Part shown: one piece after another, positions 12,101 through 57,400 of the stretch
Layout of the letters: each line of letters begins with the position of its first letter
How positions within the stretch are numbered: position 1 is the stretch's first letter
From: Lytechinus pictus
Taxonomy: Eukaryota
Reading direction: 5' to 3'
Assembly (NCBI RefSeq): GCF_037042905.1
Contig: NC_087245.1
Span: 10,914,001 to 10,978,000 of the forward strand
DNA length: 64,000 nt
Made by a program: the position numbers and the translations under genes
Notes under the pieces: generated by a model
What the model was told of the DNA's origin: nothing
What the model saw: only the letters and a program-made list of their open reading frames with translations
The model's database searches: none

Positions 12101-15100
12101 CAGTCACATTTCGAGGTCAATAAACAATATGCCCACCACTTTTCCAAATATCGCAATCTGGCTGTATTTCGGCTCTGTTCTCGACGTTATCGTTCAAATT
12201 CTCAGACATCGCTCCGCCTGGCTTCGCCATAATTTTGATATCGACTGAAAGGGGAATCCAGCCCAAATAAAAAGTTGTTTTTAGATGTAAAAAAATCAGA
12301 GAAGTTGATGCGTGAAAGCTTTAACAATATTGCATAAACAAGAAGAAAGTTATGAATTTTTAAAAGTTGTTAAAATTGGTAATAACTATACCCATGGAGA
12401 CTTCAAATTGGCCACGTTTGGGATGTCATAGTGATGTAAGGCAAGGACTACACTTCCATGTAGTCCAATGCATAAAATGGCTAAAATGTCATTTTTTCAA
12501 CAGTTTTACTTCAAATGATAGTTTTTCTTTCACGAGGACATAAAACAATATGCCACCTGGATGTATTTTTACTACTGCCCCAGGGGAATAAGTACTAAGG
12601 AGAAAACCACAAACCCCTAATAATTAAGTACATGGCCTAAAAGATGGGAAAGTTGTCCTTGCCTCTTGTCATAATTTACTTACCCAATTGCCAATTTGAA
12701 AATTACATAGTCTTAGGGATCTCAATTTCAAAGCAGCCACAGCTTTAACATTGCTTGTCCGATTTCTTTCAAACTTTCACCATTCTGTTTTTCTTATTTT
12801 TTTCTTTTCCAAAACAACATTTCATTACCAAGGTTGGATTCCCCTTGAAGTTAGCGACCAAAAGATTTGCCTGTGGCAGCACACCAATTAGTTCACTGCA
12901 TGTTCATATGATTTGGTCGTAAAACTTCAGTCCATATCAAAATTATGGCAAAGCAAAGCGGAGCGATATCTGAAAATTTGAACGATGACATCGAGATCGG
13001 AGCTGAAATACAGCCGTTCCCGATCACGATATTTGGAAAAACAGTGGGCATATTGTTTATTGATCTTGAAATGTGACTGAGAGACTTGCCATGACATTTG
13101 TGAACAATTTCTGGTGGGGAAATTTGCTCGAAGTCGGCCAGTACGAAAGTGCATTAACGCCATCAGTTCACAGTACGGAGGCAGATAGATCCAGGTAGGG
13201 GCACATGGGAAGCATACCTCCTCTATATTTAGAAATGACATAATATCAATATACATGTAGCTACAACTCTTGGATCCACCACTGAATATAGATGATTGAT
13301 TCCTTTGTATACATTTTGATTTGAACAGAGTGAGTGCATTAGAATATTTGAGTGCACACACAGGCTTCAGTTGAGCTCATCATATCTATTACTGTACTTC
13401 CAATATTCTCTACCAACTAGAATCAGATTCAATTATTTCACAACTCTTTAAAAAAACACAAAAATACAAATAAAATGCTTCTACAACAGAACATGTATTG
13501 CGAAGAATAAACAGACAAGGAGCAATGATCACCGCTGTACATGTACATGTACAGCAGATGTACGTGTACAGCGGATGTGGGGGAACAACAGAAATCCATT
13601 GGCCTATTGAGGTCCATCCCCCTACATGTAATTACCGTACAACAGGAAAGGGACAATTTACACACAAAAACAAAGCAAAGAAAAGGCAAAACAGAAGAAT
13701 AAACATCTGAGTTAGAAGGGGGGGGGGGGGGTTCACCTACATGTACCAACTACACATAAAAGTCCACAGAGACTGCAGTCGGTATGTGTGCACTGTACTC
13801 TATCCAATGGTACAAATACTTGTAGTCTAGTCTGTGGTGTTATGCTTGATTGAAACACCATACCTTAGGACAGTTTGGCCTTGGGTGATGTTAACAATAG
13901 AAGAAAAAATAAACAGGTAAAAATATGTACCACAATCTGGGATTATAGTCTATGCATGCAAGCATCATCTGCAATAGACCAAAAGCTTCAGTCTCTGTAT
14001 TTTGGTTGTTCCGCTGAACTGCGTTGGCTCACTCACCAATACATAGACTGAAGAGCTTGGAGGCCCGTACGTACAGACAACGTATTAGCAGTAACGTTAG
14101 ATCTAACATTCGGCGGAAAACCGATTTTCCGATCGTTTTTTTGTACATAAAATGTCACATTATGAAAAAGAAATCACATCCATATTAACGAAAAATGTTT
14201 AAAATTCAGAAATATCGTACCTTAGACCGCAGTTACCGCTAATTCCTTTCAAATGATGATCGAAACATCGTCATCTTCGATCCTTTCGTTGGTCAACGTA
14301 AGTTGCCATCTTTGATGACGTCATCATCCTTACAGACGTATTTACCAGTCGCTATATATTACGATTTGTGCCGCTGCTTTGCGCTTGTAGATGTGCGTGC
14401 GTTCGGAACTTGTCGCTCGCATTGATTGGCCAGGATATCGAAAATTTAATCGGAAAGCCTTGATAAAAGCACAACTCGTTGACGGCTGCCATTTTTTCCT
14501 CTCCGGCAGAAAATAAAAAAAGAAGGAATAACCCAGGGAATAACTCATCGGTAACGTATATTTTCGATATTTTATAGAACTTACATAGTTTCAAAAGAAA
14601 GATTAGGGTGTGGTTTCTTCATCCACTGTACATCATGGTAAATATCTAAGAAGGCATAATTTTGTGGATATAGTATGTTCGCTATTTTCTATCCTAAAAC
14701 AACTGGGAGAGGGCCCTTTTTTGTGATAAATCTCAACATGATAGGTTCGCTCCTCATTGTATCATGACCTTTTTTTAGGTATGCGGTTCTGAAATCATAA
14801 ACATGTCAGATTTCAGAAAGCAAAAAAAAAAAAAAATCATGTACAGATCAATGAAAATTCTGCTTCTGGCAAATTTCACGACTGTATTTTTACTTTTAGT
14901 ACTGATTAAAATAAACTAATTTCATTTTCTTTAAGATCGTAAGTGTTGTGGACAATTTACAATGAAAAAAAATCAATAAAAATCATGAGTAGTCTAGAAA
15001 AACATTGAAATACTTAAAAAAAACAATGAAAATAAAGAAATAAAATATTTGGATGCCAATTATTTTTTTGATGTGCATATGATCAGGATCTAACAAGAGT

Positions 15101-23897: not shown

Positions 23898-25302
23898 TTT
23901 AATTCAGTTTCTTTGGACTGCATTAATTGTTTCAAATGAAAAGGGTCTAGAAATGGAAACTATCATGCGTTAGTCACGTGATGTTGTACACAGAAATATG
24001 CCATGTTCTGCCTGCTCGATCTCAAAGTTTGGGGAAAAAATGAGATGTAACCATTATACCATTCATAAAGTATTATACATCAAACTGTAGGTAATCTATT
24101 TAGCATTGAGATGACAATCAATCTCGACCTTTTGACCCTTAGGGATATTCCAATGGGAAAACAAAGGTGCCAGTGTCTCGAAAATACAGGTGGTTTTAAA
24201 CCGTTTGCCATAGCAAGAGTTGTGAACATGGGCACTTTCAAATGAACAGCGAGACGTAAATAATGAATTAATTGTAATAATATTTACATCAAATTAATGG
24301 AATTGGACAAATTTTTCACACTATTATCAATCTGGTGTGAGATTATCAATAGTTATAAAGATATACCCGGATTTCTGCAATATTACATTCATGAAAACCA
24401 CTGTTCACTGTGTTGAAGCTGTGTGTGGGGACTTTCGGACACTCAAATGCACGCGACTAACCATTATGACGGTTCTGTATAGTACTAATGGTCAAAACTA
24501 CCAGTCACCAGTAACAGTAGCAGCAGCAGTAAGTGTACTAGCAGTGTCATCAATTGTAATTATTAAGAATTATCATCACATAACAAAGAAAACAGCAGTG
24601 ATGAAAAATAACTCTATTAATTGGTAGTGTGTTGTAATCATGACTAATGATGTGATGACAATATTAATAATAATGATAATAATGACAGTAATAATGATTA
24701 TGATCAAGATTATAGTGCTTTGATGAAAGGAATAATTCTGACAGATCTGACTGCAATTTTGACAACAACTTTCATACTTTAAACATAGCTAACTCTAAAG
24801 AACGATTTATAACAAGGTTGATTTCTATTCCATTAGGATTTTTCTTGTATTATTTTCTTTAGCCAACAAGAATGCTTTAAGTCTTAATGATATTCTGAAA
24901 AGATTTGGAAAACTTGAACACAATCTTCAATTTTGTTATATCCAAATGGGCTATGTCAATGGCATGATGAGCCAAAAAATTTGAGGGGCCAAGCATATGG
25001 CATATAAAACAAAATTTCTGCCAAAAAAGTTGAAAGCGATTGAAGCGAGCGAGCGGACAAAATTTGTCACCCTCTTGCTATGAGAAAAGCTAATTTGTTG
25101 AATGATTGTGACAATATATTTAGAAAATTATATCAAATTTACTCCACCTTTTCCTTTCCTTTATCCCCCTATTCTAAGTCTAGTCTTGGTGGTGGAACTT
25201 CTTCTTCTCTCTCTCTCTTTTTTTTTTTTTGGGGGGGGGTTGATATATTTTTAAACAGACGAGAAAGAGGAATGGGAAGAGAGAGAGAGAGAGGAGAAGG
25301 GA

Positions 25303-26351
25303 GAGAAACATGTAAGGGCGTAAGAAAGATGGGGGTGGCTGGTTAGGCAGAACATACTGCAGAATTAGTTAATAATGATAGGCAGTACATCTTTTCTAAA
25401 TTGTAAGGAGAAACATGTAAGGGCGTAAGAAAGATGGGGTGGCTGGTTAGGCAGAACATAACTGCAGAATTAGTTAATAATGATAGGCAGTACATCTTTT
25501 CTAAATTGTAAGGAGAAACATGTGAGGGCGTAAGAAAGATGGGGGTAGCTGGTTAGGCAGAACATACTGCAGAATTAGTTAATAATGATAGGCAGTACAT
25601 CTTTTCTAAATTGTAAGGAGAAACATGTAAGGGCGTAAGAAAGATGGGGGTGGCTGGTTAGGCAGAACATACTGAAGAATTAGTTAATAATGATAGGCAG
25701 TACATCTTTTCTAAATTGTAAGGAGAAACATGTGAGGGCGTAAGAAAGATGGGGGTGGCTGGTTAGGCAGAACATAACTGCAGAATTAGTTAATAATGAT
25801 AGGCAGTACATCTTTTCTAAATTGTAAGGAGAAACATGTGAGGGCGTAAGAAAGATGGGGGTGGCTGGTTAGGCAGAACATACTGCAGAATTAGTTAATA
25901 ATGATAGGCAGTACATCTTTTCTAAATTGTAAGGAGAAACATGTAAGGGCGTAAGAAAGATGGGGGTGGCTGGTTAGGCAGAACATACTGCAGAATTAGT
26001 TAATAATGATAGGCAGTACATCTTTTCTAAATTGTAAGGAGAAACATGTAAGGGCGTAAGAAAGATGGGGGTGGCTGGTTAGGCAGAACATACTGCAGAA
26101 TTAGTTAATAATGATAGGCAGTACATCTTTTCTAAATTGTAAGGAGAAACATGTAAGGGCGTAAGAAAGATGGGGGTGGCTGGTTAGGCAGAACATGCTG
26201 CAGAATTAGTTAATAATGATAGGCAGTACATCTTTTCTAAATTGTAAGGAGAAACATGTAAGGGCGTAAGAAAGATGGGGGTGGCTGGTTAGGCAGAACA
26301 TACTGCAGAATTAGTTAATAATGATAGGCAGTACATCTTTTCTAAATTGTA
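25303..26351 (+). repeat. Tandem array, 10 copies of about 105 bp, nearly identical
   Basis: Unit GAGAAACATGTAAGGGCGTAAGAAAGATGGGGGTGGCTGG...CTAAATTGTAAG; only single-base variants between copies. Confidence 0.97.
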
Positions 26352-29300
26352 TACATTTTGTTTTGGGTCTAGTGTCTCAGATTGACAAAACAAAGGGAAA
26401 AAATGTTTACTTCTTTTTAATCATATGGTTCGACAGTGAATTTAATTTCTCTCCAGTTTCAAGGAAATAACGTATTTGTTTTTATGTCAATATGGTTTCA
26501 AGAAATAATGATAAATAAAAATCTCTTGTATAATATATAATTAATAATTATTAATATTATTAATAATTATCAATAATTAATTAAATGTTTCAGGAAATAA
26601 TCAAGATTTACCTCCCCCCAAACTAAGGGTATGGGGTGCGCCCCATTTATTTTGTATCCTTTTGAATATAACTTTATTTTGTTAGTATTTTTTATTCTGG
26701 CTTTTGAGGTAAAATAGGTGTAGAAGATACAAGAAATGAGAATTGAAATTTAAAAGTGGTTGTAAGCAGAAAAAACATGAAAACTGGCAAGAGTCCTAAA
26801 AATGACACATTTTAAAGTCAGCATTTGAAAATTTCAGCTTGCGCTATGTGCTCTCTTGTCTCCCCCCCAAAAAAAAATTCCCTGAAGCAAAAATGCCTCT
26901 TTTTCCAAAGTCGAAAATGCCTTCTTTTTTTCAGAATGAATTATGCCCTTTTTCAAAAAGAAATACCTTCTTTAATAGTAAACATAATACATTTTAGGTT
27001 CAAAAATCACAAATTTTGAATCGTGCTTACATCAGTTATTGTTTAGTACAGTACTAATCCTGTTCATGGTTACAAAAATGTATAGATTGGTGTTTTCTGG
27101 TTGGAATATCGCAAATTTTTGGCTCGCTTTCTACACTTGCATCAATTATTGTACTCATTCTATTCCCGTTTACACACAAAAAATGCTCAGAATGTCCAGT
27201 TTTCAGGTCGTTTAGCTCGCACTTTGCACTCGCATTACTTTGATTGGTGAGTTATGTATCCTATCAAAAATGCAGTCCTTAACTGCTTCCTTTTCTGATC
27301 TGTATATTGTCAGCATTATTTCTTTAGTTAGAAAAACATCTTTTTCATGATTACAAAAACAGCTCAGAATATTTAATTTTCATGTCTTATTACACATGTC
27401 CAGAAGTTTGGGATCGTGGTTCGCACTGGCAACATCACGCAACAGTGATGATTTAACAGTCATTAGCCCCATAATTGACAAAAAATCGAGTTTTACAACT
27501 TCAGAATTGATTTTTTTCCAAAACCGCTTGCTCGCTACGCTTTCTCGCTGAGAAGTAAAACCTAAATCAAAATATCTATCTTATCAATTAGAAATCAATT
27601 TAAAAAGGCTTTGCTCAACTTAATTTCTACAAAACACACAACAACTTCACGTAGTTGATAATCTCATTTTGAAAATACATGTATCTGTTTGCACCAAAAT
27701 CCCCATTTTGGTATATAAGTGCCTTTTTGGCTTTGAACCCCCCCCCCCCCAAATACAAATAGGTTCTGCCGCCCCTGTCTCAGAGAGTGAAGAAAAACAT
27801 ACCGGTACATTGAGAATGCCAGGATCAGATGACCGTGGTAATAATAATTATTGCAATGTAAATTGCATAGAAATATTATGTATTAAATTTACAAAGGTAA
27901 CTATATTATTATTTTAATATTATGTCTAAATCTATCATGAAATTATTTTTGTTTTAAATGTACAAGGGTGAAATTCTTTTTTCGCTCAGTCCGCTCGCTC
28001 ACATACATGTTTGCCATGTGTGATGTCTGCCGCCTAAGCATTGTTAGCTCATTGTTCTGTATATCGTAAGTTTGAAATGCCTTGGCCTTGAGGTTTTCAG
28101 GCCTTGGCCTTGGGTTTCCATGCCTTGGCCTTTGGTATTGAAGCCTTGGCCTTGGGTATTAAAGCCTTGGCCTTGGATGTTAGAGCCTTGACTACAACAC
28201 TGATAGCAGCAGTGCTTCCTTTGAAAATAGCTAATGAATATTATTCACAGAAGAAAACACTAATATGATAAAACATTATGCCCATTGACCCCGACCTTTG
28301 ACCATGATCATGTGACCTACATGTGCAAAACAATCATTCATACTTGATTATCCTTATGTCGAAGTTTCATGAGCTAGATCCATAAAATTTCAAAGTTAAT
28401 TATGATGATTCCTCAAATAACCCCAACATGGCCAAAGTTCATTGACCCTATGTGACCTTTGACCTTGGTCATGTGACCTGAAACTCGCACATGATATTCA
28501 GGGATACATGGTTGCTCTTATATCCAAGTGCATGAACTAAATCCATAAACTTTTAAAGTTATGATGACAACTCATCAAATAACCCTAACATGGCCAAAGT
28601 TTGTTGACCGTAAGTGACCTTTGACCTTAATCATGTGACCTGAAACTCAGGCAGGATCTTCCTGAAATGCATACAGGGTATTCAGGGATACACTGATGCT
28701 CTTATGTCTAAGTTTCATGAACTAGATCCATAGACTTTTAAAGTTATGATGACAATTCCACAAATACCCCCAACATGGCCAAAGTTTGTTAACCGTAAGT
28801 GACCTTTGACCTTAATCATGTGACCTGAAACTCAGGCAGGATCTTTAGTGATACACTATTACCCTTATGTCTACGTTTTATGAACTAGGTCCATATACTT
28901 TCGAAGTTATGACAACATTTCAAAAACTTAACCTTGGTTAAGATTTCGATATTGATTCCCCCAACATGGTCTAAGTTCATTGACCCTAAATGACCTTTGA
29001 CCTTGGTCATGTGACCCGAAACTCAGGCAGGATGTTCAGTAATACTTGATTACCCTTATTATATGTCCCAAGTTTCATGAACTAGGTCCATATACTTTCT
29101 AAGTTATGATGACATTTCAAAACTTAACCTTGGTTAAGATTTCAATGTCGACGACGCCGTCGGAAAAGCGGCGCCTATAGTCTCGCTCTGCTATGCAGGC
29201 GAGACAAAAATGGATCAAACCCCTTTTGACAAATGAGCTCTTCAGAAGGGTTTGCAAAAGGGGTTAGATCCACTCCGAGAAAATCTTTTTTTTTCATTCT

Positions 29301-42201: not shown

Positions 42202-45200
42202 CACTGTAAAAAATAGTGGGTAAAATTTCAACTAGCACGAGGGTAATTATAAGTCCAACAATTTTTTTCATTCTGGAAAATGAATAACTCACTCCTGAAA
42301 AAAACGGCGATTATAAAACTGGTGTCATTAATGTTATCACTCATACTAAAAATGAATTTAAAGCAGAATGTGATCCTCATTATATTTGGGACCTATGTAA
42401 GTTGAGAATTAAAGATTATACTATATCTTTTGCTAAGAAGCTTAGGAAAGCCGAGAAGGAAGAATTAATTTCATTGGAAAAAGAATTAGAATGTTTACAT
42501 GTGCAACTTTATGCAGGTAATTCGGAGATATATAGAAGAACGGATGATTAGTGTTCAAAGAAAGGTTAATATGTATTACAAAAAGCAATGCGATGGTGCA
42601 AAAGTTAGGTATAGAGTTACACATTTTGAAGAAAGTGAGAGCAATATTTCATACTTTTTAAATTTAGAACATAGGAATAGTACAAAAAAATATATATCAG
42701 GGATAAAGATAGGAAAGAAAGTAGTAACACATAGGGACAAAATTATGAAGTCAGTAGAAAAGTTTTATTCTACATTATACACAACACAAAATCCCGATCT
42801 GTTGTTGATCGAAGCGTATCTTAAAGAAATAAATCACCCTCATTTATGTGGTAGTGAAGCCGAAGAATGCGAGGGACTGATCTCAATTAAAGATGCCATG
42901 GCACAAATGCGTTAAAGGGAATGAGTCTCAATAAAACACCCGGTATCGACGGATTAACAGTAGAGTTTTTTAGGGAATTTTGGGTTGATATACAAGATCT
43001 TGTTGTAAATAGTTTAAATGAAGGTTATAGCAAAGGTAAGCTTAGTTTTTTGCAGAGAAAGGGTGTTGTAACTTTGTTATTTAAAGGTGGAGACTCGATG
43101 GAATTGGGTAACTGGCGACCAATAACATTACTTAATACTGATTACAAAATACTTGCTACAGTACTATCAAACAGACTCCAAAAGGTTTTAACTCATTTAA
43201 TTAATGAAGACCAAGTAGGTTATATCAAGGGCAGGAGTGGTATTTATAATGCCAGAATAATCCAGGATGTTATAGATTATAGCATTTTTAACAAAACCGA
43301 TGGTGCAATTATAATTTGCCGATTTTCAGAAAGCATTCTATACGTTAGAATGGAAGTTTATTGATGCTTGTTTAAAGATATATGGTTTTAAATATAGTTT
43401 TAGGAAATGGATTTCAGTTATATATAATGATCCCCATCTTAATATATTAACGAATGGATGGTTAACAAGAGATATAAAGCCATCGCGGGGTATAAGACAG
43501 GGCTGTCCCTTATTCGCATTAATATTTATACTTTGCATTGAAACCCTTGCAAATCAGATAAGACAAAATAATAATATCATAGGTTTGAGCATTGGTTACA
43601 AACATGAAAATAAGAATACTTTTAAGATACTGCAGTTAGCAGATGATATGACATTATTTGTTAGGACAGTTATATCAGGCAATACAGCTATTAATATCAT
43701 TAGAAACTTTGAAACATATTCTGGAATTCATTTAAATGAAAACAAAACAAAATCTATTTGGCTGGGAAACGACAATCCGACAAATAATATTGGAAATATA
43801 TTATGGGAGGACGTTTATGATAAGTCTCTTGGTATTCATTTTTGCAAAAAGAAGCATTTAAGTTTAGAAATGAATTAGTCTGAACAAAGAATATTAAAAA
43901 TTAAACAGTTGTTACAAATATGGAAACAGAGAAACCTTACGTTAAGAGGGAAAATTTTAATATTAAAATCGTTGATTATGTCGAAAATAATTTATACATC
44001 ACAAGTTCTTTCTTGTCCTAAAGAAATAGTAAAGGAGCTCGATAAATTATTTTTTAATTTCTTATGAAAAGGTTAAACGGACTAATGTAGTAAGCACAAT
44101 AGATGAAGGTGGCCTAAATATGTTAGATGTTGAAACAAAAGTTGCGTCGTTGAATTTATTTTGGCTTTGTAAATATTTGAGTGATGAGTTAAACCCTGGA
44201 TGTAAATGTATGTTTGATTACTGGTTTCAGCAACTGGGTGGTATAAAATTTATTATGAATTGTAAATATAATATTAAAAACAAATGTTTTTTGGAAAACA
44301 GGATGCCTTATTTCTATTATAACTTGCTATCAACGTTTTTCTTATTAAAAAGGTATAACTATTCAAGAAATATTCAAGCAGATATACAGGATAATTATCA
44401 AAAAGAAATGATTTGGCTAATCTTATACAAAGGGAAAATTTTATTTTATATGAATTGGATAAACTCTGATATTTTGTTTGTGGGGGATTTAATGGATGAT
44501 AAGGGTTTTCTATACCTATAGATAAGATTAGCGCTAAAATAGTAGTTAAGGACGGAAGGTGGTACAGTCAGTATGCTCGTATACGACAGGCTATTGAGTT
44601 ATGTGGCAACATGTCTCTTTTTTCTAATACAAGTTTATTACAAAAGAAGTATTCGGAATTTAGATCCAATGTTAATGTATATAATGATATTAGATTGGTT
44701 GATAGTATTATTAGGAAAATATATTATGAATTGATCCAAGTAAAAACTGAAGAATCTAGAGCAGAGGAATTTTGGTGTAATACCTTAGTATTTGACTGTT
44801 TACCAATTTGGACAGATGTTTGGTTATTTAAGTTAAAGTTAGTTAAGGATTATGTACTGGTCAATTTTAATTTTAAGTTCATGTATAATATTTTGGCAAC
44901 ACCAGCTAACCTTTTTAGATGGAAATTAAAAGAAAATGACCAATGTTTTTACTGTGATCAAAAAGGTGATTGCAGTTATATGTTTTTCTCTTGTAACATA
45001 ATGATAATATTTTGGAAAAAAGTTGAAGAAAATGTACAGAAATATATTTTGCCAAATTTTCATTTCCAGCCATGTTATATATTATCAGGAATTTCATTTA
45101 GATCAAAAGAAAAAAATGATGTAGATATAATTTTGAATTATGCTTTATATACCATTTATAAATGTTTCGCTGGAAAAGAATCTAAAAGGAAAATAACGAT

Positions 45201-45579
45201 TCAAAGGCTGTTTAATATTTTGTTTTACCTATTAAGATATCGTTTACAGATAGAAGAAAATGTGAAATCCAGAAAACCATGTATTTCCCTCCAGAAATGG
45301 AGGCAAATGTTAGCACTGTGAATATATTTTGTTTGATGAATAAAGAAGACCAGCAATGGTTATTTTACAAAAAAAAAAAAAAAAAAAAAAAAATAAGTCC
45401 AACAATTTGGGGCAGTATCCAATGCGGGAAGCATATTGTCCAGTAAGGTTAAAAAATAACCAGCTATTTAAGAGTGGGCACATTTTCATTACAATAATAA
45501 AAATGCCTAAAAGAAATGCCCAATGTTGGTTGGACACAATTACCCTCATGGAGCATTTTTACCCATATTTTTTAGAGTG
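42202..45579. mobile_element. CACT-ended MITE (TA flanks) hosting the LINE
   Basis: Left end CACTGTAAAAAATAGTGGGTAAAA..GAGGGTAATT; right end AATTACCCTC..TTTTACCCATATTTTTTAGAGTG; TA on both sides. Confidence 0.8.
42265..45392 (+). mobile_element. 5'-truncated, frameshifted non-LTR retrotransposon (L1/Tx1-like ORF2: reverse transcriptase and C-terminal zinc knuckle)
   Basis: Fragments WKMNNSLL, KTPGIDGLTVEFF, NWRPITLLNTDYKILA, GIRQGCPL, QLADD, GGLNMLD, CFYC..YMFFSC. AATAAA at 45339, A-tail 45369-45392, 16-bp TSD ATAAGTCCAACAATTT at 42249-42264 and 45393-45408. Confidence 0.93.
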
Positions 45580-45854: not shown

Positions 45855-48240
45855 TAGTGGCGTAACAGGGGTCGGTGGCCAGGGGGGGGGGGCAAGAGCA
45901 AACATTTTCCCGGTCATATCATGGTATAAACAGGCGTAATGGTGTAATGAGGCGACGATTTTGAGAGGGCCAGATATTGCGTATCGGGCAGAATTTATCT
46001 TTTAAAAAAGTTGCGAGCGAGCGAAGCAAGCGAGCAAAAAATTTGACATTTTTAATACAAAAATCAAATTTTGTGATAGATTTTGACATGATATCAGTGG
46101 CGTAACAGGCGGGGGACAGGGGGGCAAGCTGCCCCCCTGGCGGATTTCACCGGGAAAATAAAAAAAAAACGGGAAAAAGAGGAAAGGGAGGGAGAAAGAA
46201 AGGGAAAGGGGAAGGAAAGGGAAAAGGAAAGGGAAAAGTGAAAAGAAAACGAAAAAAAAAATCCTTTTTTAAATGATAAAGGAAGGAATTAAGCGGGAAA
46301 GGGAACGAAAGAAGAACATTTGAGAAAGAACAAATCATTCTGAAATAGGCCTATGTAATGCAATAGCATGATGGGAAATAAATCAAAAGATGACAAAGTG
46401 GCACAAATATAGCGGGAAACGAAGGTAGAAAGGAATTAGTCAAGAGCTAAATTGGAAAACAAAGAAATGGGACAAGAAAAAAAAATAATAACACGACCGG
46501 GCTGCTGAGGATTGAGAGTAAAGAGCGGGAAGAAAGATGGACAGTATACAACATTGTGCTATAAGCTTGCTAAATTTTGTGCAAATAAGCTATCGGGGCT
46601 TTGCCCTATTATATAGACCCCACGCAGTAGGGGTCCTTATCTATAACATTCAAATGGCTCTATAACGCCCCCCTGTAGGGACCCTTCCTACATTAAGCTT
46701 TGCGTTCAATCACTGGCATATAGGCGCGGGGGGGGGGGGGGGGGTCTTGGTTCTACACCCAAGAGGAATTATTATAGGAGACAACGTATAATGAAATTAA
46801 TGGAAACAATGAAATGTGTTATTTGCTGAATAAATATAATGGAAAAATCTATTACATAATAAGAATTTAATTTCAATAGGCACTCTTTTTGCAGCTCGCT
46901 TTGCTCGCTGGCAACTTTTTACAAATTTTCCCACATTGCTTTGTTTTGCCCCCTCAAAATATTTGGTTCATTACGCAACTGGGTTGAATAAAATGTTGTG
47001 TAAAAGCTACATTCTGTATATACCCGCGATTTGATTAAAAATAGCGGCAATCTGCGAGGTTTAAATGGCTTTGATATCAAGACCCCATCCGCATTACACT
47101 GCCGTATATGAGTATGGAAGGGTTGGGCCATGGCCCCAAAAGTTCTACAAACAAGAGCAAAAAAAAAAAGGAGGAAAGAAAAGCAAAGGAAAAGTGAAGG
47201 ATATGATTTTATTTACTGAATATAATGTCAAAAAATATCTCAAAGTTAGATTCTCATGAAAAGGTGATATTTTTCTCGGTCGCTTCGCTCGCTCAGGACT
47301 TATATTAAGCAGCTTTTTAGCACATGCGCCATACTGTACCCATCGTTTTTTTTGTACTCTTCACGCAACTGCCGCAAATAATCCTGTTCACAGTGGGGTA
47401 CAGACCACACAAAAAAAAGGAATGGAAAGAGAGAAGAATAAAATATATTATTCTTTGGATATCATGTCAAAATCTATCACAAAATTGGATTTTTGTATTA
47501 AAATGTCAAAAATTTTGCTCGTTCGCAACTTTTTTTAAAGATAAATTCTGCCCGATACGCAATATCTGGCCCTCTTAAAATCGTTGCCTCATTACGCTTG
47601 TTCATACCATGATATGACCGGGAAATTTGTTGCTCTTGCCCCCCCCCCCCTGGCCACCGACCCCTGTTACGCCGCTGCATGTAATGTAGGAAGGGTCCCT
47701 ACAGGGGGGGGGGCGTTATAGAGCCATTTGAATGTTATAGATGAAGAGCCCTACTGCGTGGGGTCTGGGGCAAAGGCCCGGTAGCTTATTTTCATAAAAT
47801 TTAGCAAGCATATAGCACAATGTTGTATACTGTCCATCTTTCTTCCCGCTCTTTACTTTCAATCCTCGGCAGCCCGGTCGTGTTATTATTTTTTTTTCTT
47901 GTCCCATTTCTTTGTTTTCCAATTTAGCTCTTGACTAATTCCATTCTACCTTCGTTTCCCGCTATTGTTTGCCACTTTGTCACCTTTTGATTTATTTCCC
48001 ATCATGCTATTGCATTACATAGGCCTATTTCAGAATGATTTGTTCTTTCTCAAATGTTCTTCTTTCATTCTTTTTCCCGCTTAATTCCTTCCTTTTTCAT
48101 TAAACAAAAATATTTTTTCTTCGTTTTCTTTTCACTTTTCCCTTTCACTTTCCTTTTCCGCTTTTCATTTCCCCATCCCTTCCCCTTTCTTTCTCCCTCC
48201 CTTTTCTCTTTTTCCCGTTTTTTTTATTTTCCCGGTGAAA
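45855..48240. mobile_element. Cluster of hAT-type (YAGTGGCGTAAC) element fragments with two pairs of long inverted repeats
   Basis: 45855-46094 inverted at 47458-47677; 46145-46695 inverted at 47682-48240. Confidence 0.8.
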
Positions 48241-48413: not shown

Positions 48414-49741
48414 GGATATGCGTAAGCCCGGTGCGTGAGCTGAAGAAAATTGAGAACTTCAGTGTTTGTGGTGTATGTATTTTCATCAGGAACTCAAACT
48501 GTCACAAAATTGTGCCCCTTGAAGATTTTGCCCCACAAAAGCCGTAAGTGTTCAGGCATGCCTGATTTATTAACTATAGGGGAAGTTCTTTTGACAATAA
48601 TTTATGGAAGACCAAAACACTGTATTTGGAAGAACGCGCGGCCCTCAAGAGCAAAAATAGGCCCTAAGCCCCTAAGACCAGACTGATGTATCTGCTGGAT
48701 GAAGTCATAATTCATGCAGCTGCATTTTGTAGCTTCTTCAGTTTCCCAATGTGAGAATCTGGTAAGTTGGAAAAGAAGCTCATAACCCAAATCGAGCCGG
48801 GAAAAATAAGTAAATGTACTCAAGTTTCTCTGTGAGGTATTTTCTTATGTTTATGTTTCGCAATTGATAAAGACCTGCAATTGCTTCTAATCTATTTGGA
48901 TATGGACATGTAAACCATCTTTTGATATGCTGATTATGCATGTTTCGTGAAATTAAACACATTTCAAAATATATCAACTTAATTATAAAGATCTCATGAA
49001 ATTCTGTTTCATTCTATTTATACTCAAATCAGCTGCTATACGCTGTATGCCGTTTAAAATTTTTATCTTAAAATTACCCATTGATATTTTATAAACGGGG
49101 ACTGAGGGGGCAGAAAGTTTTCTAAAATAGTACAAATAAGTTCTGCCCCCATATTTTGGACCCCCCCCCCCCCCGCTTGTTGTCCTGCGCTGCATATATG
49201 CATGCACGGTTATTATTAAATTGCGTTTCGCCGATACCGTAAAAATAATCATTAGTATTTTAGTAAGACTAAGACTCTAAGAGTAAGAGTAAGAGAAGCG
49301 AATTTGCGTCGATCATGATCTTGTGACAAAACGCGGTCTAATAATACTTTTCTGGTACCGGTATGTATTGAAAAAGATTATTGATATGCTTCTTATATAT
49401 CCTAAATGATATTGTAGGATCCTGTTTATTGTTTTTTATTCATTTAGAGATAAGTGGATTTGTCGTTAGTGCTTGAATCGCAATCAATGCCATAGCCACA
49501 GGCGGACACTAATGCATGCGATTCTTATGCACGTTTATCCAATGGGGATATCACGAATCCTTGTTGTAATATATCGAATTGCACAGGAGCCAAGTCGACG
49601 CATGGACTGGTAGAGTAAATTAGTTTTAACAGTAACACTTTCCCAATTGGCCAAGCCCAATTTTTGATTTGGAGACCTCAAGACTTTTATATCATAATCA
49701 TGTACAGTGAGTGAGTTAGTTATTTAGAACTTGACTAGACT

Positions 49742-50197
49742 TAGAGTACAGCTGGCAGCCGTCTGTTTCGAGGAGTTTTTTAACATTTTTTTTTTTTTTA
49801 AATTTCTCCTCGTACACAGACGGCTCGCTATCGTGCAGCCACCATTAGGGGACTTGCAATGCAAAATCCCCCCGTCGGGGCTCTTCAATTTTTGTCTTTA
49901 ATGAATAAAAATTTTGAAAATTAACGCGACCAAATTAAAATACAAATTAATATTCCATCTTGGCATTAATTGCCAAAAAACAGAGAAAAATCAAGTTAAA
50001 AGGAACAAAAACAGTGACTTACCTCGGCTGTCACGCAAATTCACTTCCCCGTTTTATCCGATCTTAAGTACATAAACATATGGCCATTGAGTCCCCTGTA
50101 CAGATCGCGCTAGAACTTCGGTCTCTGTATTTGGTGAGTGAAGCCAACGGAGTTCAGCTGAACAACCAACATAACAGAGACCGAAGCTTTTGGTCTA
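49742..50197. mobile_element. 456-bp element with a hairpin module at each end and a 9-bp TSD (possibly AcademH-type non-autonomous)
   Basis: TAG...CTA ends; perfect TSD GACTAGACT at 49733-49741 and 50198-50206. Confidence 0.8.
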
Positions 50198-51496
50198 GAC
50201 TAGACTGAGAGTCGACTCTAGAGTAGGTATGTGACAAAAAAATAAAAATCATGGAATTAGTGATTTGAATTACATTGTAACCTAGTCCACGCACAAGAGA
50301 GACTGCACGAAGCCGTAAAAACACTAAAAACAACTGTAAAAAATGCCAATTTCTTTGTTTCTTGAACCTTCCTGTAATCCCGTATCCAAAATTCATGCTA
50401 AGACATCGAATGCTAGACAAATTCTGAAAGTGATTGTGAGTTTGTGATGCAAGAAATGTGAATGTTTCTTCCTCCTACGCCGGGGAAGACACGGATCATT
50501 ATTTGATAAGATGTACTAGTGGTACCGTATCGTAGTTTGCAATGTACAAGAACGGCAGTGCTGTGTGTGTGTACACTGTGACTGTGAGGTGAGTGAGTGA
50601 CTGAGTGTGTAAGTGGCCAATATTGTCGGGACCTTTCTTTCTTGCTATCATTTGTAGATGCATTGATCAAGAAAAGCAGATTTCCGCATACCGGTAATCT
50701 CTTTGGATACTTTGAAAGCTTTAACTTAGTTTTTATTTCTTCGTACCTCAAATATAATGTGAGAAGGATTTTTTTTTTTAGTCTAAAGTTGGGGGTGCGG
50801 TTAATCCACGGGTGCGGTTTATAGTCCGTTATTACGGTAACCTGCCCAAGTAAGAAATTGAGATTCAAATGTTAAATTTATTCTTCCTTTTTTGTTTTTT
50901 GGACTTGTTAATATAAAATTTCTTTTAATTTTACAAAATGAAATTGAAATTTGTATCAACATTTTTTTTTTGGTGTGATATAAAGATAGTACAAGGGGTA
51001 CCTCGAGCGAAGTTCGTGCAGGCTCCACTCCACTTCACTACCGCTACACTACGCTCCACCTACCCGAACTTCGTGACCGTGAACTCGTTCAGATACTCCG
51101 AGAGGCAAGGGTGGGATAAAAAAGTTATTTAATGTAAAAATTATAGAACAAAAATATAACGAAAAAGAAAAATAGCTTAATTTCTTACCCTACACCCTTA
51201 TTTCACTCCGTGTCCATCCTCCGGTTATCCTCAAAATTGGTGATTTTGGGCCAGTATCTAATTCCTCACACGTATTATTCACGGCCGATTTCAAACATCG
51301 CATGTGATTGGTCGCAGGTCAAGCAGCATGAATATTTATATTATATTGGATGGCTCAGAAAATACCAGAAATATTCTAAGAGTTTGGGAAAATATTCCAC
51401 GAATCAGTGGAGTATTTTGCCAAACTCTTAGAATATTTCTGGTATTTTCTGAGCCATCCAATATAAATATTCATGCTGTTTGACCTGCGACCAATC

Positions 51497-52568
51497 CAGG
51501 GATGCCACTTTTTCGTCTTTATACGGAATTCCGGCTTTTTCCCTGCTATCTGTCTTATTTCTGTGTTTCTGACTTTTCTTGTTTTCTGTGTATTAAAAAA
51601 CGGAAAGTCCCCCTTTTTCTCCCTCTCTCTCATGCATGTCGATCGACCGCGTGAGAGATATTTGCTATTATTATAAACGCGCGCACTACCCACTACGTTC
51701 ATTGAGCTATCCTTTTATCGAGGCTTTCCGATTAGAATAAATCCTGGCCAATCAATGCGAGCGACAAGTTCCGAACGCATGCACATAGACAAGCGCAAAG
51801 CAGCGGCACGAATCGCGGTATAATAGCGACTGGTAAATACGTCTGTAAAGATGATGACGTCATCCAAGATGGCAACTTACGATGACCAATTAAGGAATCG
51901 TGGATGACTAAGTTTTTATCATCATTTGAAAGGAATTAGCGGTAACTGCGGTCTAAGGTACGATGTTTCTGAATTTTATATATTTTCTCGTAAGTTTGGA
52001 TGTAATCATTTTTTTATAATGTGACATTTTATGTACCAAAAACGTTCCGAAAATCGGGTTTCCGCCGAATGTTATATCTAACGTTACTGCTGCATGCTGA
52101 TACGTAACCCAGGGAGCTCCGGCCCGGAAAGCGGGCCGGAGCTCCCTGGGTTAGCTGATACATTGTCTTTATGTACGGGCCAACAACTCTTCAGTCTATG
52201 TATTGGTGAGTGGAGCCAACGCGGTTCAGCTGAACAACCAAACTACAGAGACTGAAGCTTTTGGTCTAGCGTTCTATGAGAAACACACAACAACTAACTA
52301 CTGTCAGTTTTTCAAACCTAATTGACTTCAAAGTCATCGATCACAACAAGATACAAGAAGCCACTTGGTCCTCCCCCCCCTCCCCTAAATTTGAGGTGGG
52401 GGCGGACCCCCCCCCTATTTATTTATTTATTTTTTTTGCTTGTCCAATTTTTTACCTGTGTCCATCCCCAAATTTAAGGTGGACCCCCTAAATTTTTTTC
52501 TTTCTTGGACACTGTCCCGGCCCGCGATAAGTTTCAGTATTTTTGGAGGACACCTAGTGGCATCCCTG
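51497..52568. mobile_element. hAT-type element nested in the foldback
   Basis: TIR CAGGGATGCCACT / AGTGGCATCCCTG; 8-bp TSD GACCAATC at 51489-51496 and 52569-52576. Confidence 0.9.
52105..52153. mobile_element. 49-bp hairpin insertion with a 9-bp TSD
   Basis: TAACCCAGGGAGCTCCGGCCCG-GAAAG-CGGGCCGGAGCTCCCTGGGTTA; flanks GCTGATACG/GCTGATACA; absent from the paralogous copy near 14085. Confidence 0.85.
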
Positions 52569-53018
52569 GACCAATCGCATGCGATGTTTTGAAATCGGCC
52601 GTGAATAATATGTGTGAGGAATTAGATACTGGCCCAAAATCACCAATTTTGAGGATAACCAGAGGATGGACATGGAGTGAAATAAGGGTGTAGAGTAAGA
52701 AATTAAGCTATTTTTCTTTCTCGTGATATTTTTTTTCTATAATTTTTACAATAAATAACTTTTTTATCCCACCTTTTCTCTTGGAGTATCCGAAGGAGTT
52801 CACGGTCTCGAAGTTCGGGTAGGTGGAGCGTAGTGTAGCGGTAGTAGTAGTGAAGTGGAGTGGAGCCTGCACGAATTTCGCTCGAGGTATACAAGGGGTA
52901 GACTGATAAATCCGTTCTTTTTTAGAAGTTTGTTAACATTTTAAAATTTTGTTTTCAGTCCTCATCCTACACAGTAACCCAGGTAGCTCCGGCCCACTTA
53001 GAGGGCCGGGTGCCCAGG

Positions 53019-53360
53019 ACTCGTTCGTGTAATACAAGGCGGACATATGCTCTCCAAAATGGGGAAGAATGGGGTCGAAATAGCACTCAAAATAAAAGGG
53101 GAAAATATAAATTATGCACTTACCTTGATTATATGGATGAAGGTCTATCGTAAGACACAGAATCCTGACGTCGAGGCACAAACTGGACCCTTAAAAAAGG
53201 AAAATTTCTGTCTCGCTCGTTCTCCTGTCAAAATTGAAAACAAAATGACCTTCATCCATATAAATTGAGGTAAGTACATACTTTTATTTTGAGTGCTATT
53301 TCGACCCCATTCTACCCCATTTTGGAGAGCATATGTCCGTCTTGTATTACACGGACGAGT
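53019..53360. mobile_element. Palindromic MITE
   Basis: ACTCGTTCGTGTAATACAAGGCGGACATATGCTCTCCAAAATGGGG versus its reverse complement ending at 53360. Confidence 0.8.
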
Positions 53361-53672
53361 GAAAGTGCCCATATACAGTACATGTATGGCCAACATGCAT
53401 AGTTTTAAACTTGGATGGTAAATTATTGTGTGGTCAAATGCTTTTTGACATAGATCTAGACTTTAGATTGGAGCTTTCCATCTACCGTTACTGGCATGTG
53501 CAACTCTTGTGGACAGGTGTTACATGGGGTGGATATTGTGTTTCCATGCTATAGTATTCAAATACGATGTTCATCGCTAGCTGTTCATTTAATAATAACC
53601 TTTGCATAATCCTTGTTCACGTTCCCTTGAATAAACAAATTTGAATGTGCATTAAGACTTTAAAAGTCTTAA

Positions 53673-54246
53673 AGGGATGGTCCGGGCTGAAAGTATGTAT
53701 AGTTTAATAAATAGAGTAGAATTCACTGAGCAAAATGCCAAAAATTTCATCACAATCGGATAACAAACAACAAAGTTATTGAATTTTAAAGTTAAGCAAT
53801 ATTTTGTGAAAACAGTTGTCATGAATATTCATTAGGTGGGCTGATGATGTCACATCCCCACTTGTTCTTTTGTATTTTATTATATGAAATTAGGTTTATT
53901 TAAATTTTTTTCCTCCAAGAACTAGAAAAATTGGATTGACAACTGCATTAGATATTTATTGCTGCAACTCATTTCATTATAAGGGAGACATATTATTCAC
54001 ACAAGTATAAATAATGAAAAAAATATGATTTTATGTAATAACATAAGAAAACAGAAAGTGGGGATGTGACATCGTCAGCCCACCTAATGAATATTCATGA
54101 CAACTGTTTTCACAAAATATTGCTAAACTTTCAACTTCAATAACTTTATTATTTGTTATCCGATTTTGATGAAATTTTCAGCATTTTGCTCAGTGAATTC
54201 AACTCTATGTATTAAGATATAAATATTTTCAGCCCGGACCATCCCT
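53673..54246. mobile_element. TTAA-flanked foldback MITE, Kolobok-like family D
   Basis: TTAA-AGGGATGGTCCGGGCTGA ... TCAGCCCGGACCATCCCT-TTAA; arms of about 190 bp. Confidence 0.85.
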
Positions 54247-54348
54247 TTAATAACTTGGAAATAATACATGCGAACCTTATCTTTTTTTTTATTCGTTACA
54301 AGAATTTTGTGACAACTTGTGTGAAAGACTGGCAAGAGTGACTTCAGA

Positions 54349-54403: not shown

Positions 54404-57400
54404 GTAATCTACAAATGTACACGTCATCACCATGCTCCAAAATCTAAGATCACTTGTTGGTAAAGGGTCTTAATTTTGTTTTTTTAGTTTGTAGGCAAAT
54501 TGAGAAGTCATTGGGTAAAGCAGGCCTATCTTGAAAAAGGGAGGAAGTGGAGTCATCCACCCACCTTATGTTTGTTACAAGAATCAGTTATATTTTTTGT
54601 GCCAATGTTATTTCCTTTAGGCCTATCTTAAATATCATGCAATGAGAAATCAATCATTCATTGCATGGATCGATTTGTAACCATGCCTGAAGGGTGTTAC
54701 ACATGTACATGTAAGTGGCACTGGCATGTCTAGGAAGCAATAGGCTAACTAGGTAAACAAACAAGATTGGAAGGGGGTGGTAGCAATCATGAGATTTGTT
54801 AAGAAGAGTCTAGGACCTAGGTTGATGAGAACGGCAACTATCCAAAGTAGATGACAATCCATGTTTTGTCAAATTGATGCTGTCCAAAATTTAATTGGCT
54901 TTAATAGCCCTGAGGGCTTGCATGATGAACGGATTATATTATTCAAATACTAGTAAATGAGCCTTGCATATTTTTTCCATTTCCCTCTGATCTTTCACGT
55001 GAGATAAAAAGTCATTCCTGTTAATTCAGATCTGTCTTCACTGCATAGCAAAGAAGAAGTTTACCCTACATCAGTGAGAGTGACCGAATAGCTGCAGCTA
55101 CATCAAAATCTCAAGTTCTTAAGTTCTTGCAGAGCTGTCAACTATTAAAGAAAAGTCATAATTATTAGGATTTTCATGTCAAATTATGCCAATATACTTT
55201 TGACCCTAATTATTACTCGTTTTAGGGCAAATAATATGTTAACATTTAATACTATAAGGTAATATATAGGGCAGTGGTGAACTCGTCTGAAGGTGGCCAA
55301 TAATTCTCATTATTTGCATGATCGAGTATCTTTGTTTACATTCCTCAGAATGCTATCATCACATGTTTAAATACTGACTCAATCTTGTGGGTTTTTTCAC
55401 TTGGATTTATCATAGATTTACGCAAAAAAGAGAATACCAGAGATGATTCTGAATCTTGAATCTTAGCCTAAAAAGAAAGAGGATTCATTTCTTAAAGAAT
55501 ATGTTCCTTATATTACCTCTTCAAAAAGTTAATACCGCGTAGCACATATGAAATTATGACTTTTGAGCTTCTGGATTACTACTTTTTACTTTTAAAGGTT
55601 GGCAGCTCTGTTCTTGAAATATAAAAAAAAAATTGAAATTTAAGTGGTTTTTGCAAAGCTTTGAATGATGCACATGTAGATGAAGCCGCCATGAGTTGGA
55701 CTTGACCATGTAGAGTCATTTGGGCATAAAAATTCTGATGTGGAACCAAGTATGCCACCGAAAATAGGTGTTACAGACTCAGTCCGTGGACAAACTTACT
55801 CGTGGATGGATTTTCTTTGAATTTGGTAGTTTAAGAATAAGACCCAACTCAAATATAACTCTTGAAATTTTTTTATGGTACAATGAAACATGAAAGGAGA
55901 TGCAGTCCTATAAATGAACAATGGCAATGGAGAATATATTAAGATACTACCTAATATATTCTTTTTTTTTTTCAAACAGGAAAGTTTCTTCCCTTCAAGA
56001 CTCCACTTGGTCCAACATACAATGACAACATCCCAGAAGAGAACCGCTTTGATGTGTCAATGCTGTTTGCCTACATGACATCTAGGCAGGTCAAACTTGG
56101 ACTAGTCATTGATCTGACCAATACACATCGATTCTATGACAAGGAAGAAATTGAAGGGAATGAAGCAAGACACTTCAAGCTGCAGTGCAAGGGGTCAGTC
56201 TATTATATGTATTTACCTCACATTTCATTTAATTTTTTTGGCAACTTTTGTCACATTTGTGATTTATTAGTTATTCATTTCTTGATTTAATAGTTGTGTT
56301 AATTATATATTTTGGGAGTGGGATAGAAGAATAGTTATGATATACATGTTAGATTGTAATTTGAATTGAGGAACCATGACCCCCATAAATCCATGTGTGC
56401 CCATGGTTTAAAACATAAATATTATGTACAAAGATTCAATCCATCATTCTGAAGAATAAATGTTATATCAGCACAGATGAACAGATTGCCTAGACTTTTG
56501 GCCTGTTGTATTAAAAGTGTAATTGATGATCTCCCCCAAATTAAAATACAGTTCTCATTGTAGGCTAATGATTGGCTAATACAGACATGTGTTTTCTATT
56601 TAAATGCATTTTTTTGTGTAACTGGTCCTATGCCAATGGTTAAAACTCATCATTTGTGACTATAGGTAGGTCTGTTCCATAACCCAAGATCTAGGTTTTA
56701 AAAAATTTACTCTTTTTCCCCCACAGGCGTGGTGAATGCCCATCCCGAGAACAGACATCTCTTTTCATCCAGATCTGTGGTACATTCGTAGGCAAGAATC
56801 CTGATCAGATCATAGGTGTTCATTGTACTCATGGATTTAACAGGACTGGTTTCCTTATTTGTGCCTACCTGGTAGAAAACTTGGACTGGAGGTAGGTTCA
56901 GCCAGTGAAACTTACACACACCTCATTTTCCTTTTTTCTGAATTTTTTTATTGTTAGATTTGTTTTTTTCAGGGATGCCTCATCAGTTATATTAACTGTA
57001 TCTCTGGGATGGAATAGATGAATTTGAATGAGGTTGATGATGATGATCATGTCTTTATCTGGGGTTTGTGTACAGGGAGGAGTGTGAAAACAGGCATAGG
57101 CAGATGCTCAAGTTCATTTAGTGGGTGTTCCAAGGGGATTTAAGGATCAAAATGTATACAACTGTGTATATGAAGGGAGGATGAAGCCATGAATGTTGGA
57201 TTTCCTCTTGCCATGATCTATCACAAAGGTATCATAGTCACCTTTGGAGCCTATTATTAACACTTTTGTCCAACAAGTTGTCAGATCTAACAACTTTCCT
57301 AACTTATGATTTGCGTAGTGTGTCTGATTGTTGCTATGGTCACTTTGATCACTTTCAGTACCATTAAAAGTGGCAACACATAATATTGGTGTGCCCAAAT

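Follow-up and report, generated by a model that had tools for sequence, protein, structure and literature searches.

A nest of non-autonomous transposons with hairpin-like tips upstream of RNGTT in Lytechinus pictus, probably mobilised by AcademH-type elements

Several transposable elements clustered at one locus of Lytechinus pictus end in short hairpins, which raises the question of whether such hairpins are mobile units in their own right or the ends of longer elements. The cluster lies in a stretch of 64,000 nucleotides of contig NC_087245.1 (here called the window; animal DNA with a GC content of ~35%), ~1 kb upstream of the apparent start codon of RNGTT (54349, from sequence). An earlier note had placed it upstream of this gene, and the match of a coding exon to the mRNA capping enzyme confirms that setting (Table 1). 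The cluster comprises four families, E1, H, E2 and E3/E4, all with TA termini and, in those that retain both ends, with target-site duplications (TSDs) of 9 bp. We favour, with somewhat better than even confidence, the explanation that it is a nest of non-autonomous cut-and-paste transposons, probably moved in trans by AcademH-type elements, in which the shortest member, the hairpin E3, arose by collapse of a longer element.

Table 1. Coordinates of the elements, their ends and their target-site duplications (positions within the window; TIR, terminal inverted repeat).
Feature	Position	Strand	Description
E1 left TSD	49733..49741	+	9 bp, identical to 50198-50206
E1	49742..50197		Non-autonomous, 456 bp, TA..TA; copy number in organism A very high
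E1 left end	49742..49830	+	13-nt tip, then imperfect hairpin, stem ~49755-49828, z -6.9
E1 right end	50111..50197	+	Hairpin 50116-50186 and 11-nt tip, z -4.6; common to family H
E1 right TSD	50198..50206	+	9 bp, GACTAGACT on either side of E1
E2 left TSD	50990..50998	+	9 bp, identical to 52890-52898
E2	50999..52889		811-bp foldback element (50999-51496 and 52577-52889) enlarged by nested insertion; ~320-bp TIRs; central palindrome 51306-51496
E2 right TSD	52890..52898	+	9 bp, TACAAGGGG on both E2 flanks
Nested hAT-like element	51497..52568		1,072 bp, 12-bp TIR starting CAGGG
hAT-like TSD	51489-51496 / 52569-52576		Exact, 8 bp, GACCAATC
Family H fragment	51704..52268		Interior unlike E1, right end as E1; hairpin ~52180-52264, terminus 52268, z -4.0
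Family H second copy	13975..14477	-	Without E3; empty site near 14089
E3 left TSD	52096..52104	+	GCTGATACG; preceded by 7 extra bases (52089-52095)
E3	52105..52153		Perfect hairpin of 49 bp (arms 22 bp, loop 5 nt); E4-type, terminal-only
E3 right TSD	52154..52162	+	GCTGATACA; 8/9 versus left, one CG-to-CA change
E4	52975..53360		Left tip 52975-53018 related to E3; inverted arms 53019-53145 / 53247-53360; without right tip
RNGTT coding exon	55982..56191	+	E 9e-21 to mRNA capping enzyme, PDB 2c46

Evidence from outside the window came from contigs of public runs, aligned once: X1, X2 and X5 from organism A, and X10 from organism B. These contigs share at most 29% of the window's words and possibly represent another haplotype or a related species; statements on them refer to the best 24 of 3208 loose contig ends and to 15 of 377 joints, and summed contig depth does not equal copy number. 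The low depth at 49742-49767, where reads are cut at the adjoining poly-T, was left out of account. Folds were computed for end segments as single-stranded DNA and compared with 200 shuffles.

The three elements with TA..TA ends and 9-bp TSDs that the earlier note had described, namely E1, E2 and E3, were recovered at the same coordinates, with exact duplications for all except E3 (8/9). Many contigs whose flanks are unrelated to one another end at 50197 (82 loose ends in X1, 89 in X2 and 80 in X5) or begin at 50999 (73 in X1, 65 in X2 and 5 in X10), and these positions are therefore family termini. Given that contigs fix the right terminus of E1 and that, of 4233 TA sites outside tandem arrays, just 10 have the exact 9-mer and a TA in the 1 kb upstream of them, the exact TSD of this element is improbable by chance. 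By itself, a TSD is no proof, since a blind scan of the window for 9-mer/TA pairs yields 162 matches, mostly tandem repeats. Summed contig depth over the interior of E1 exceeds the flank bin by a factor of ~4,000-5,500, which is not a true copy number, and this interior is linked to the right end in contigs of organisms A and B; the joints considered include none that skips the whole of E1 or of E2.

Both ends of E1 fold well (0 of 200 shuffles as good at either end), and among 1500 TA-initiated 89-mers sampled from 6693, 12 fold equally well, 8 of which overlap the cluster. Each end had been proposed to be a TAG..CTA hairpin of its own; in the predicted folds, the terminal TAG and CTA are unpaired and the stems start 11-13 nt inside the tips. 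The inner TAG that was thought to close the right-hand module is present at 50111, but neither of the two other copies of that end has it. Similarly, the statement that E1 has no true TIR went too far: its ends show a weak, degenerate match, which is borderline by chance standards (2.4% of 10,153 TA sites score equally; shuffle p ~0.05). Each of the four outer ends of E1 and H has a TCTGT motif that ends 24-25 nt from the tip, and in the E1 modules it also ends 15 or 18 nt from the inner TAG.

The right flank of E1 (50198-50225) contains a 12-bp palindrome and a repeat of 5 bases that are found after the left TSD as well; because these bases recur to the right of E1, its left boundary could shift 6 bases inward. 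One X5 contig joins at 49748, which bears on the same boundary. On the minus strand of E1, positions 50014-50030 resemble a canonical splice donor facing inward from the right end, and E1 may perhaps keep the first exon of an autonomous parent.

The right end of E1 recurs at 52189-52268 and 13975-14053 with 88-89% identity, as had been noted before. There it does cap another interior, but the same one twice (51704-52268 and 14477-13975 are 87-91% identical), so that the recurrences represent one further family, H, rather than two different cargoes. Homology between H and E1 is confined to the last ~82 bp of E1 and ends at the hairpin foot, with nothing further inward; the alignments support one end common to two different interiors. 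Common termini with different interiors are expected among non-autonomous families. For MITEs, the miniature transposable elements with inverted repeats, the same is stated in an excerpt of PMC3119063. In both H copies the shared end folds better than 200 of 200 shuffles, and its imperfect inner arm is at most 4 nt short of repeating the whole tip. Across the three copies, 1 of 30 stem pairs is compensatory (changed on both sides between E1 and H), which does not suffice to distinguish between a single-strand fold and a palindrome of double-stranded DNA. For the fragment at 51704-52268 we found neither a left end nor a TSD partner for 52268. A candidate far end of the 13975 copy at 16226 (TSD 8/9) was rejected as it forms no hairpin (154 of 200 shuffles fold equally well) and lies at chance level. 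Just past the end of the homology, 14481-14491 (minus strand) matches the left stem of E1 (49753-49763) over 11 bp, which may be chance or the trace of a related left end.

E2 proved to be of a more ordinary kind. One module had been proposed to serve as both of its ends; instead, it carries long TIRs (92% identical by BLAST, 94% by column identity), its tip has no better fold than shuffled sequence does (41 of 200 as good), and 756 of 824 columns of its core are self-complementary. It contains a nested element, overlooked by the earlier note, which we take to be hAT-like from its terminus and TSD. An insert-free E2 is represented in X1 and X2 by a contig joint from 51488 to 52569, at which 8 letters fit both sides; the stretch skipped in E2 by contig joints is given as ~51489-52574.

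The hairpin E3 (z -10.8; better than 200 of 200 shuffles) lies within H, and the H paralogue has a single target copy and no hairpin. The empty site is also seen in contigs: a joint in X2 leads from 52086 to 52154, and record 28 of X5 begins at 52154 and continues into the flank. The 7 bases at 52089-52095, which are absent from the paralogue and from the X2 contig, look like a partial third copy of the E3 target and are possibly the footprint of an earlier event. As previously suggested, a relative of E3 starts at 52975 (30 of 35 positions match, and 0 of 2000 shuffles reach the similarity of the E3 and E4 tips), although its hairpin is weak (25 of 200 shuffles as good). This element, E4, has a candidate decayed TSD (52966-52974 / 53370-53378, 7/9). 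In X1, X2 and X5 alike, a contig carries the E4 arm followed by 36 letters matching 52116 onward (joint 53358 to 52116), and since all three organism-A runs agree in this, most of E3, including its loop, corresponds to what an E4-type element has at its right. If such an end is part of a perfect TIR pair, the pair shares an 11-bp direct repeat, and a computed collapse between the repeats gives E3. Thus, E3 has the TSD and empty site of a lone module, but is explicable as a core deletion of an element such as that at 52975. Two tips fused by core deletion are the likeliest origin of E3, and we put this collapse ahead of solo transposition and of a footprint of the P-element type.

In E1, H and E3/E4, an end is made up of the tip and, behind it, the same sequence inverted and in most cases incomplete; the arrangement is weak at 52975 and at the E2 tip. 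Given that the terminal TAG and CTA are unpaired and that H has no inner TAG, the usual design is a tip plus an incomplete inverted copy and not a closed unit. The two copies would be putative paired binding sites of a transposase, supplied in trans, together with a RecQ-like helicase, by AcademH-type elements elsewhere in the genome. Families with common ends would descend from related autonomous elements via internal deletion or replacement. Because palindromic tips provide the left and right ends with a short direct repeat, deletion between them would leave a terminal-only hairpin within the original TSD, comparable to a solo long terminal repeat. The nesting suggests an order of events, with the hAT-like element entering E2, H coming to lie inside the hAT-like element, and an E4-type element inserting into H.

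Kojima reportedly defined AcademH in 2020 as a lineage within the Academ DNA transposons. The assignment to this lineage, already suggested by the earlier note, fits the 9-bp TSDs of E1, E2 and E3 and the TA-type termini of AcademH elements, and the elements of the cluster are probably non-autonomous transposons of the AcademH type. Several points weigh against this explanation as a whole. No transposase or helicase was seen in the cluster, where stop-free frames in 49742-53400 do not exceed 152 aa (frames without family scan), so the superfamily is judged by TSD length and by termini known from general background. Eight of ten pairwise comparisons of ends between families are not significant, the exceptions being E3/E4 and the borderline pair of E1 left and right ends, which leaves a single mobilising system for all families unproven. 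The right-end bins of E1 are 1.9-4.0 times as deep as its interior, which leaves room for solo copies. The joint of 53358 to 52116 has single-copy depth (52-75) and a further stretch between its two parts, and the computed collapse is partly circular in that the left tip was derived from E3 itself, as the reverse complement of its right part. An AGCTYCGG-like motif near the tips of different families, noticed by eye, is not significant.

Of the alternatives, the one that survives best is that of the earlier note, in which hairpins act as independent units, able to move by themselves and to pair with one another at will. Here, each hairpin would be a mini-transposon with outer and inner cleavable ends, transposing singly or paired around other DNA, like the long terminal direct repeats (LTDRs) of KolobokP or pairs of bacterial insertion sequences; we regard this as unlikely. 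It would readily account for E3 as a solo module with TSD and empty site, for the absence from E4 of exactly its right tip module, and for the E1/H homology that ends at the hairpin foot. In addition, the inner TAG lies 5 nt from the stem in both E1 modules, in the left module the distance of the core is 25 nt to the outer end and 15 nt to the inner one, a difference of one helical turn, and the tip bins exceed the adjoining interior in E1 (as above) and in E2 (2.3-3.8 times). However, these ratios come from summed contig depth and not from copy number, the bin of E3 is just 0.15-0.26 as deep as the preceding H bin, and the inner TAG is missing from 2 of 3 copies of the right module. The interior of E1 is joined to its right end in both organisms, E3 can be explained by deletion, and E2 is an ordinary long-TIR element. 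No cluster of loose ends at 50111 or 49830 is among those considered, which is a weak argument, as 49742 is likewise unlisted and poly-T cuts reads there; solo copies of the E1 or E2 modules were not seen in the window or among the contig ends and joints considered. A more specific version, similarly doubtful, would be a helicase-assisted lineage reading folded or palindromic ends, in which each 45-90-bp module is a minimal transposon with a long outer and a short inner terminus, jumping alone or paired with an unlike module. If true, this would be a eukaryotic composite system with units five to ten times smaller than those of KolobokP.

A second alternative retains the same anatomy and assigns it to foldback-type MuDR/MULE elements or to another superfamily with 9-bp TSDs, perhaps without a common transposase. 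TSDs of 9 bp are typical of MULEs, and those observed here fall within the 8-11 bp of that group. MULE ends are usually G..C, whereas all termini here are TA..TA, and we consider this assignment somewhat less likely still. E2 is a long-TIR foldback element and the likeness of ends between families is not significant, both as this alternative would have it, and long TIRs are typical of MULEs according to an excerpt of PMC3310237. Finally, that E3 is an excision footprint, left when cuts in P-element style fell ~22 nt into both TIRs of an E4-type element and its stubs were rejoined with short filler, is improbable even though the TSD, the equal TIR stubs and the 5-nt centre have the expected shape, because the 36 letters of the contig joint from 52116 cover the centre and part of the left arm, which makes the centre family sequence and not filler.

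Under the favoured explanation of a nest moved by AcademH-type elements, the cluster would provide defined substrates for studying end recognition in Academ and, in one lineage, the role of its helicase, as it combines hairpin-tipped families of high copy number, a compensatory change in one stem pair, and a terminal-only insertion of 49 bp whose empty site is confirmed. Should single modules be mobile, an element of ~50 bp would rank with the smallest cut-and-paste units of eukaryotes, and host DNA could be carried by modules in pairs; if they are not, the use of the locus lies in its annotation, as a nest of four levels close to a housekeeping gene.

The surroundings of the cluster hold further elements. 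Between E1 and E2 (50224-50839) lies a high-copy element with a TACGGTA end, a decayed left end and a contig depth of 19,000-121,000 in organism A, presumably a TA-targeting MITE of the Tc1/pogo type. Directly upstream of the RNGTT start codon, 53669-54250 is a 582-bp element with 203-bp inverted arms (91%) and several dispersed relatives. Interleaved long inverted repeats at 45856-48240 (arms up to ~200 bp, 86-96%) resemble another nest of TIR elements, and 42490-45321 (plus strand) is a long interspersed nuclear element with frameshifted reverse-transcriptase-like reading frames, identified by eye. Further away are a tandem array of ~12 copies of a 105-bp unit (25226-26471) and, also by eye, a reading frame like an aldehyde dehydrogenase exon (998-1315, minus strand). 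Rfam returned four matches, all to microRNA models and below gathering scores, which we took as generic hairpins.

How does the cluster compare with known systems? In the excerpts available to us, AcademH elements have TSDs of 9 or 10 bp (PMC10045372) and carry a helicase. The cluster resembles them in the 9-bp TSD of E1, E2 and E3, the animal host and the presence of non-autonomous derivatives; it differs in that no transposase or helicase was seen. The Repbase rule for terminal sequences asks for the same TSD length and for likeness at positions 1-11, according to an excerpt of PMC4455052; TIRs are present here in E2 and E3, degenerate in E1, and without a second end in E4 and H. Subterminal hairpins or terminal-only remnants are not described in the AcademH passages of PMC10045372, PMC10799480 and PMC8290104, nor is Academ end structure in the excerpts of PMC8290104, PMC4455052, PMC4298943, PMC10294476, PMC12210899, PMC3310237 and PMC5751038, and the supplement of PMC8969392 holds nothing on Academ. 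The literature search as a whole listed no paper on Academ ends that form hairpins or occur singly; Repbase and the paper defining AcademH lay outside it, so that absence from print is not implied. In exact-pattern scans, the right tip of E1 was absent from metagenome and viral contigs, and the E3/E4 tip from metagenome contigs. Foldback/MULE elements and MITE nests share long TIRs, extra internal copies of terminal sequence and nesting (PMC3310237, in part), whereas the cluster has TA termini and short hairpin tips.

Two systems come closer to the question of free ends. KolobokP elements, which occur in echinoderms, are described in the available sections of PMC9587614 as composite-like, with terminal units that have their own inverted repeats and solo units with TSDs, and its authors consider both recombination and solo transposition, the alternatives that arise for the cluster too. 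KolobokP LTDRs are direct repeats of ~450 or ~660 bp, with TSDs of 3-5 bp and RR..YY termini (PMC9587614); in contrast, the units of the cluster measure 45-90 bp, the ends of E1 differ from each other, those of E2 are inverted, and the TSDs are 9 bp with TA..TA termini, and no repeats of the KolobokP type and length were found at the cluster. The PATEs and IS605-type elements of Haloquadratum have no true TIR and near-terminal palindromes, and 52-bp terminal-only PATEs arise via repeat-mediated core deletion, with mobility of the remnants considered possible by the authors (PMC3119063, in part). Near-terminal palindromes are likewise found at both E1 ends, in H and in E3, and weakly in E2 and E4; the PATE/IS605 elements are archaeal and transpose as single strands without target duplication, unlike the cluster with its 9-bp TSDs (as far as the excerpt goes). 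By analogy, composite eukaryotic transposons such as KolobokP and ~50-bp terminal-only remnants such as those of the PATEs are precedents for the two fates considered here for a hairpin tip.

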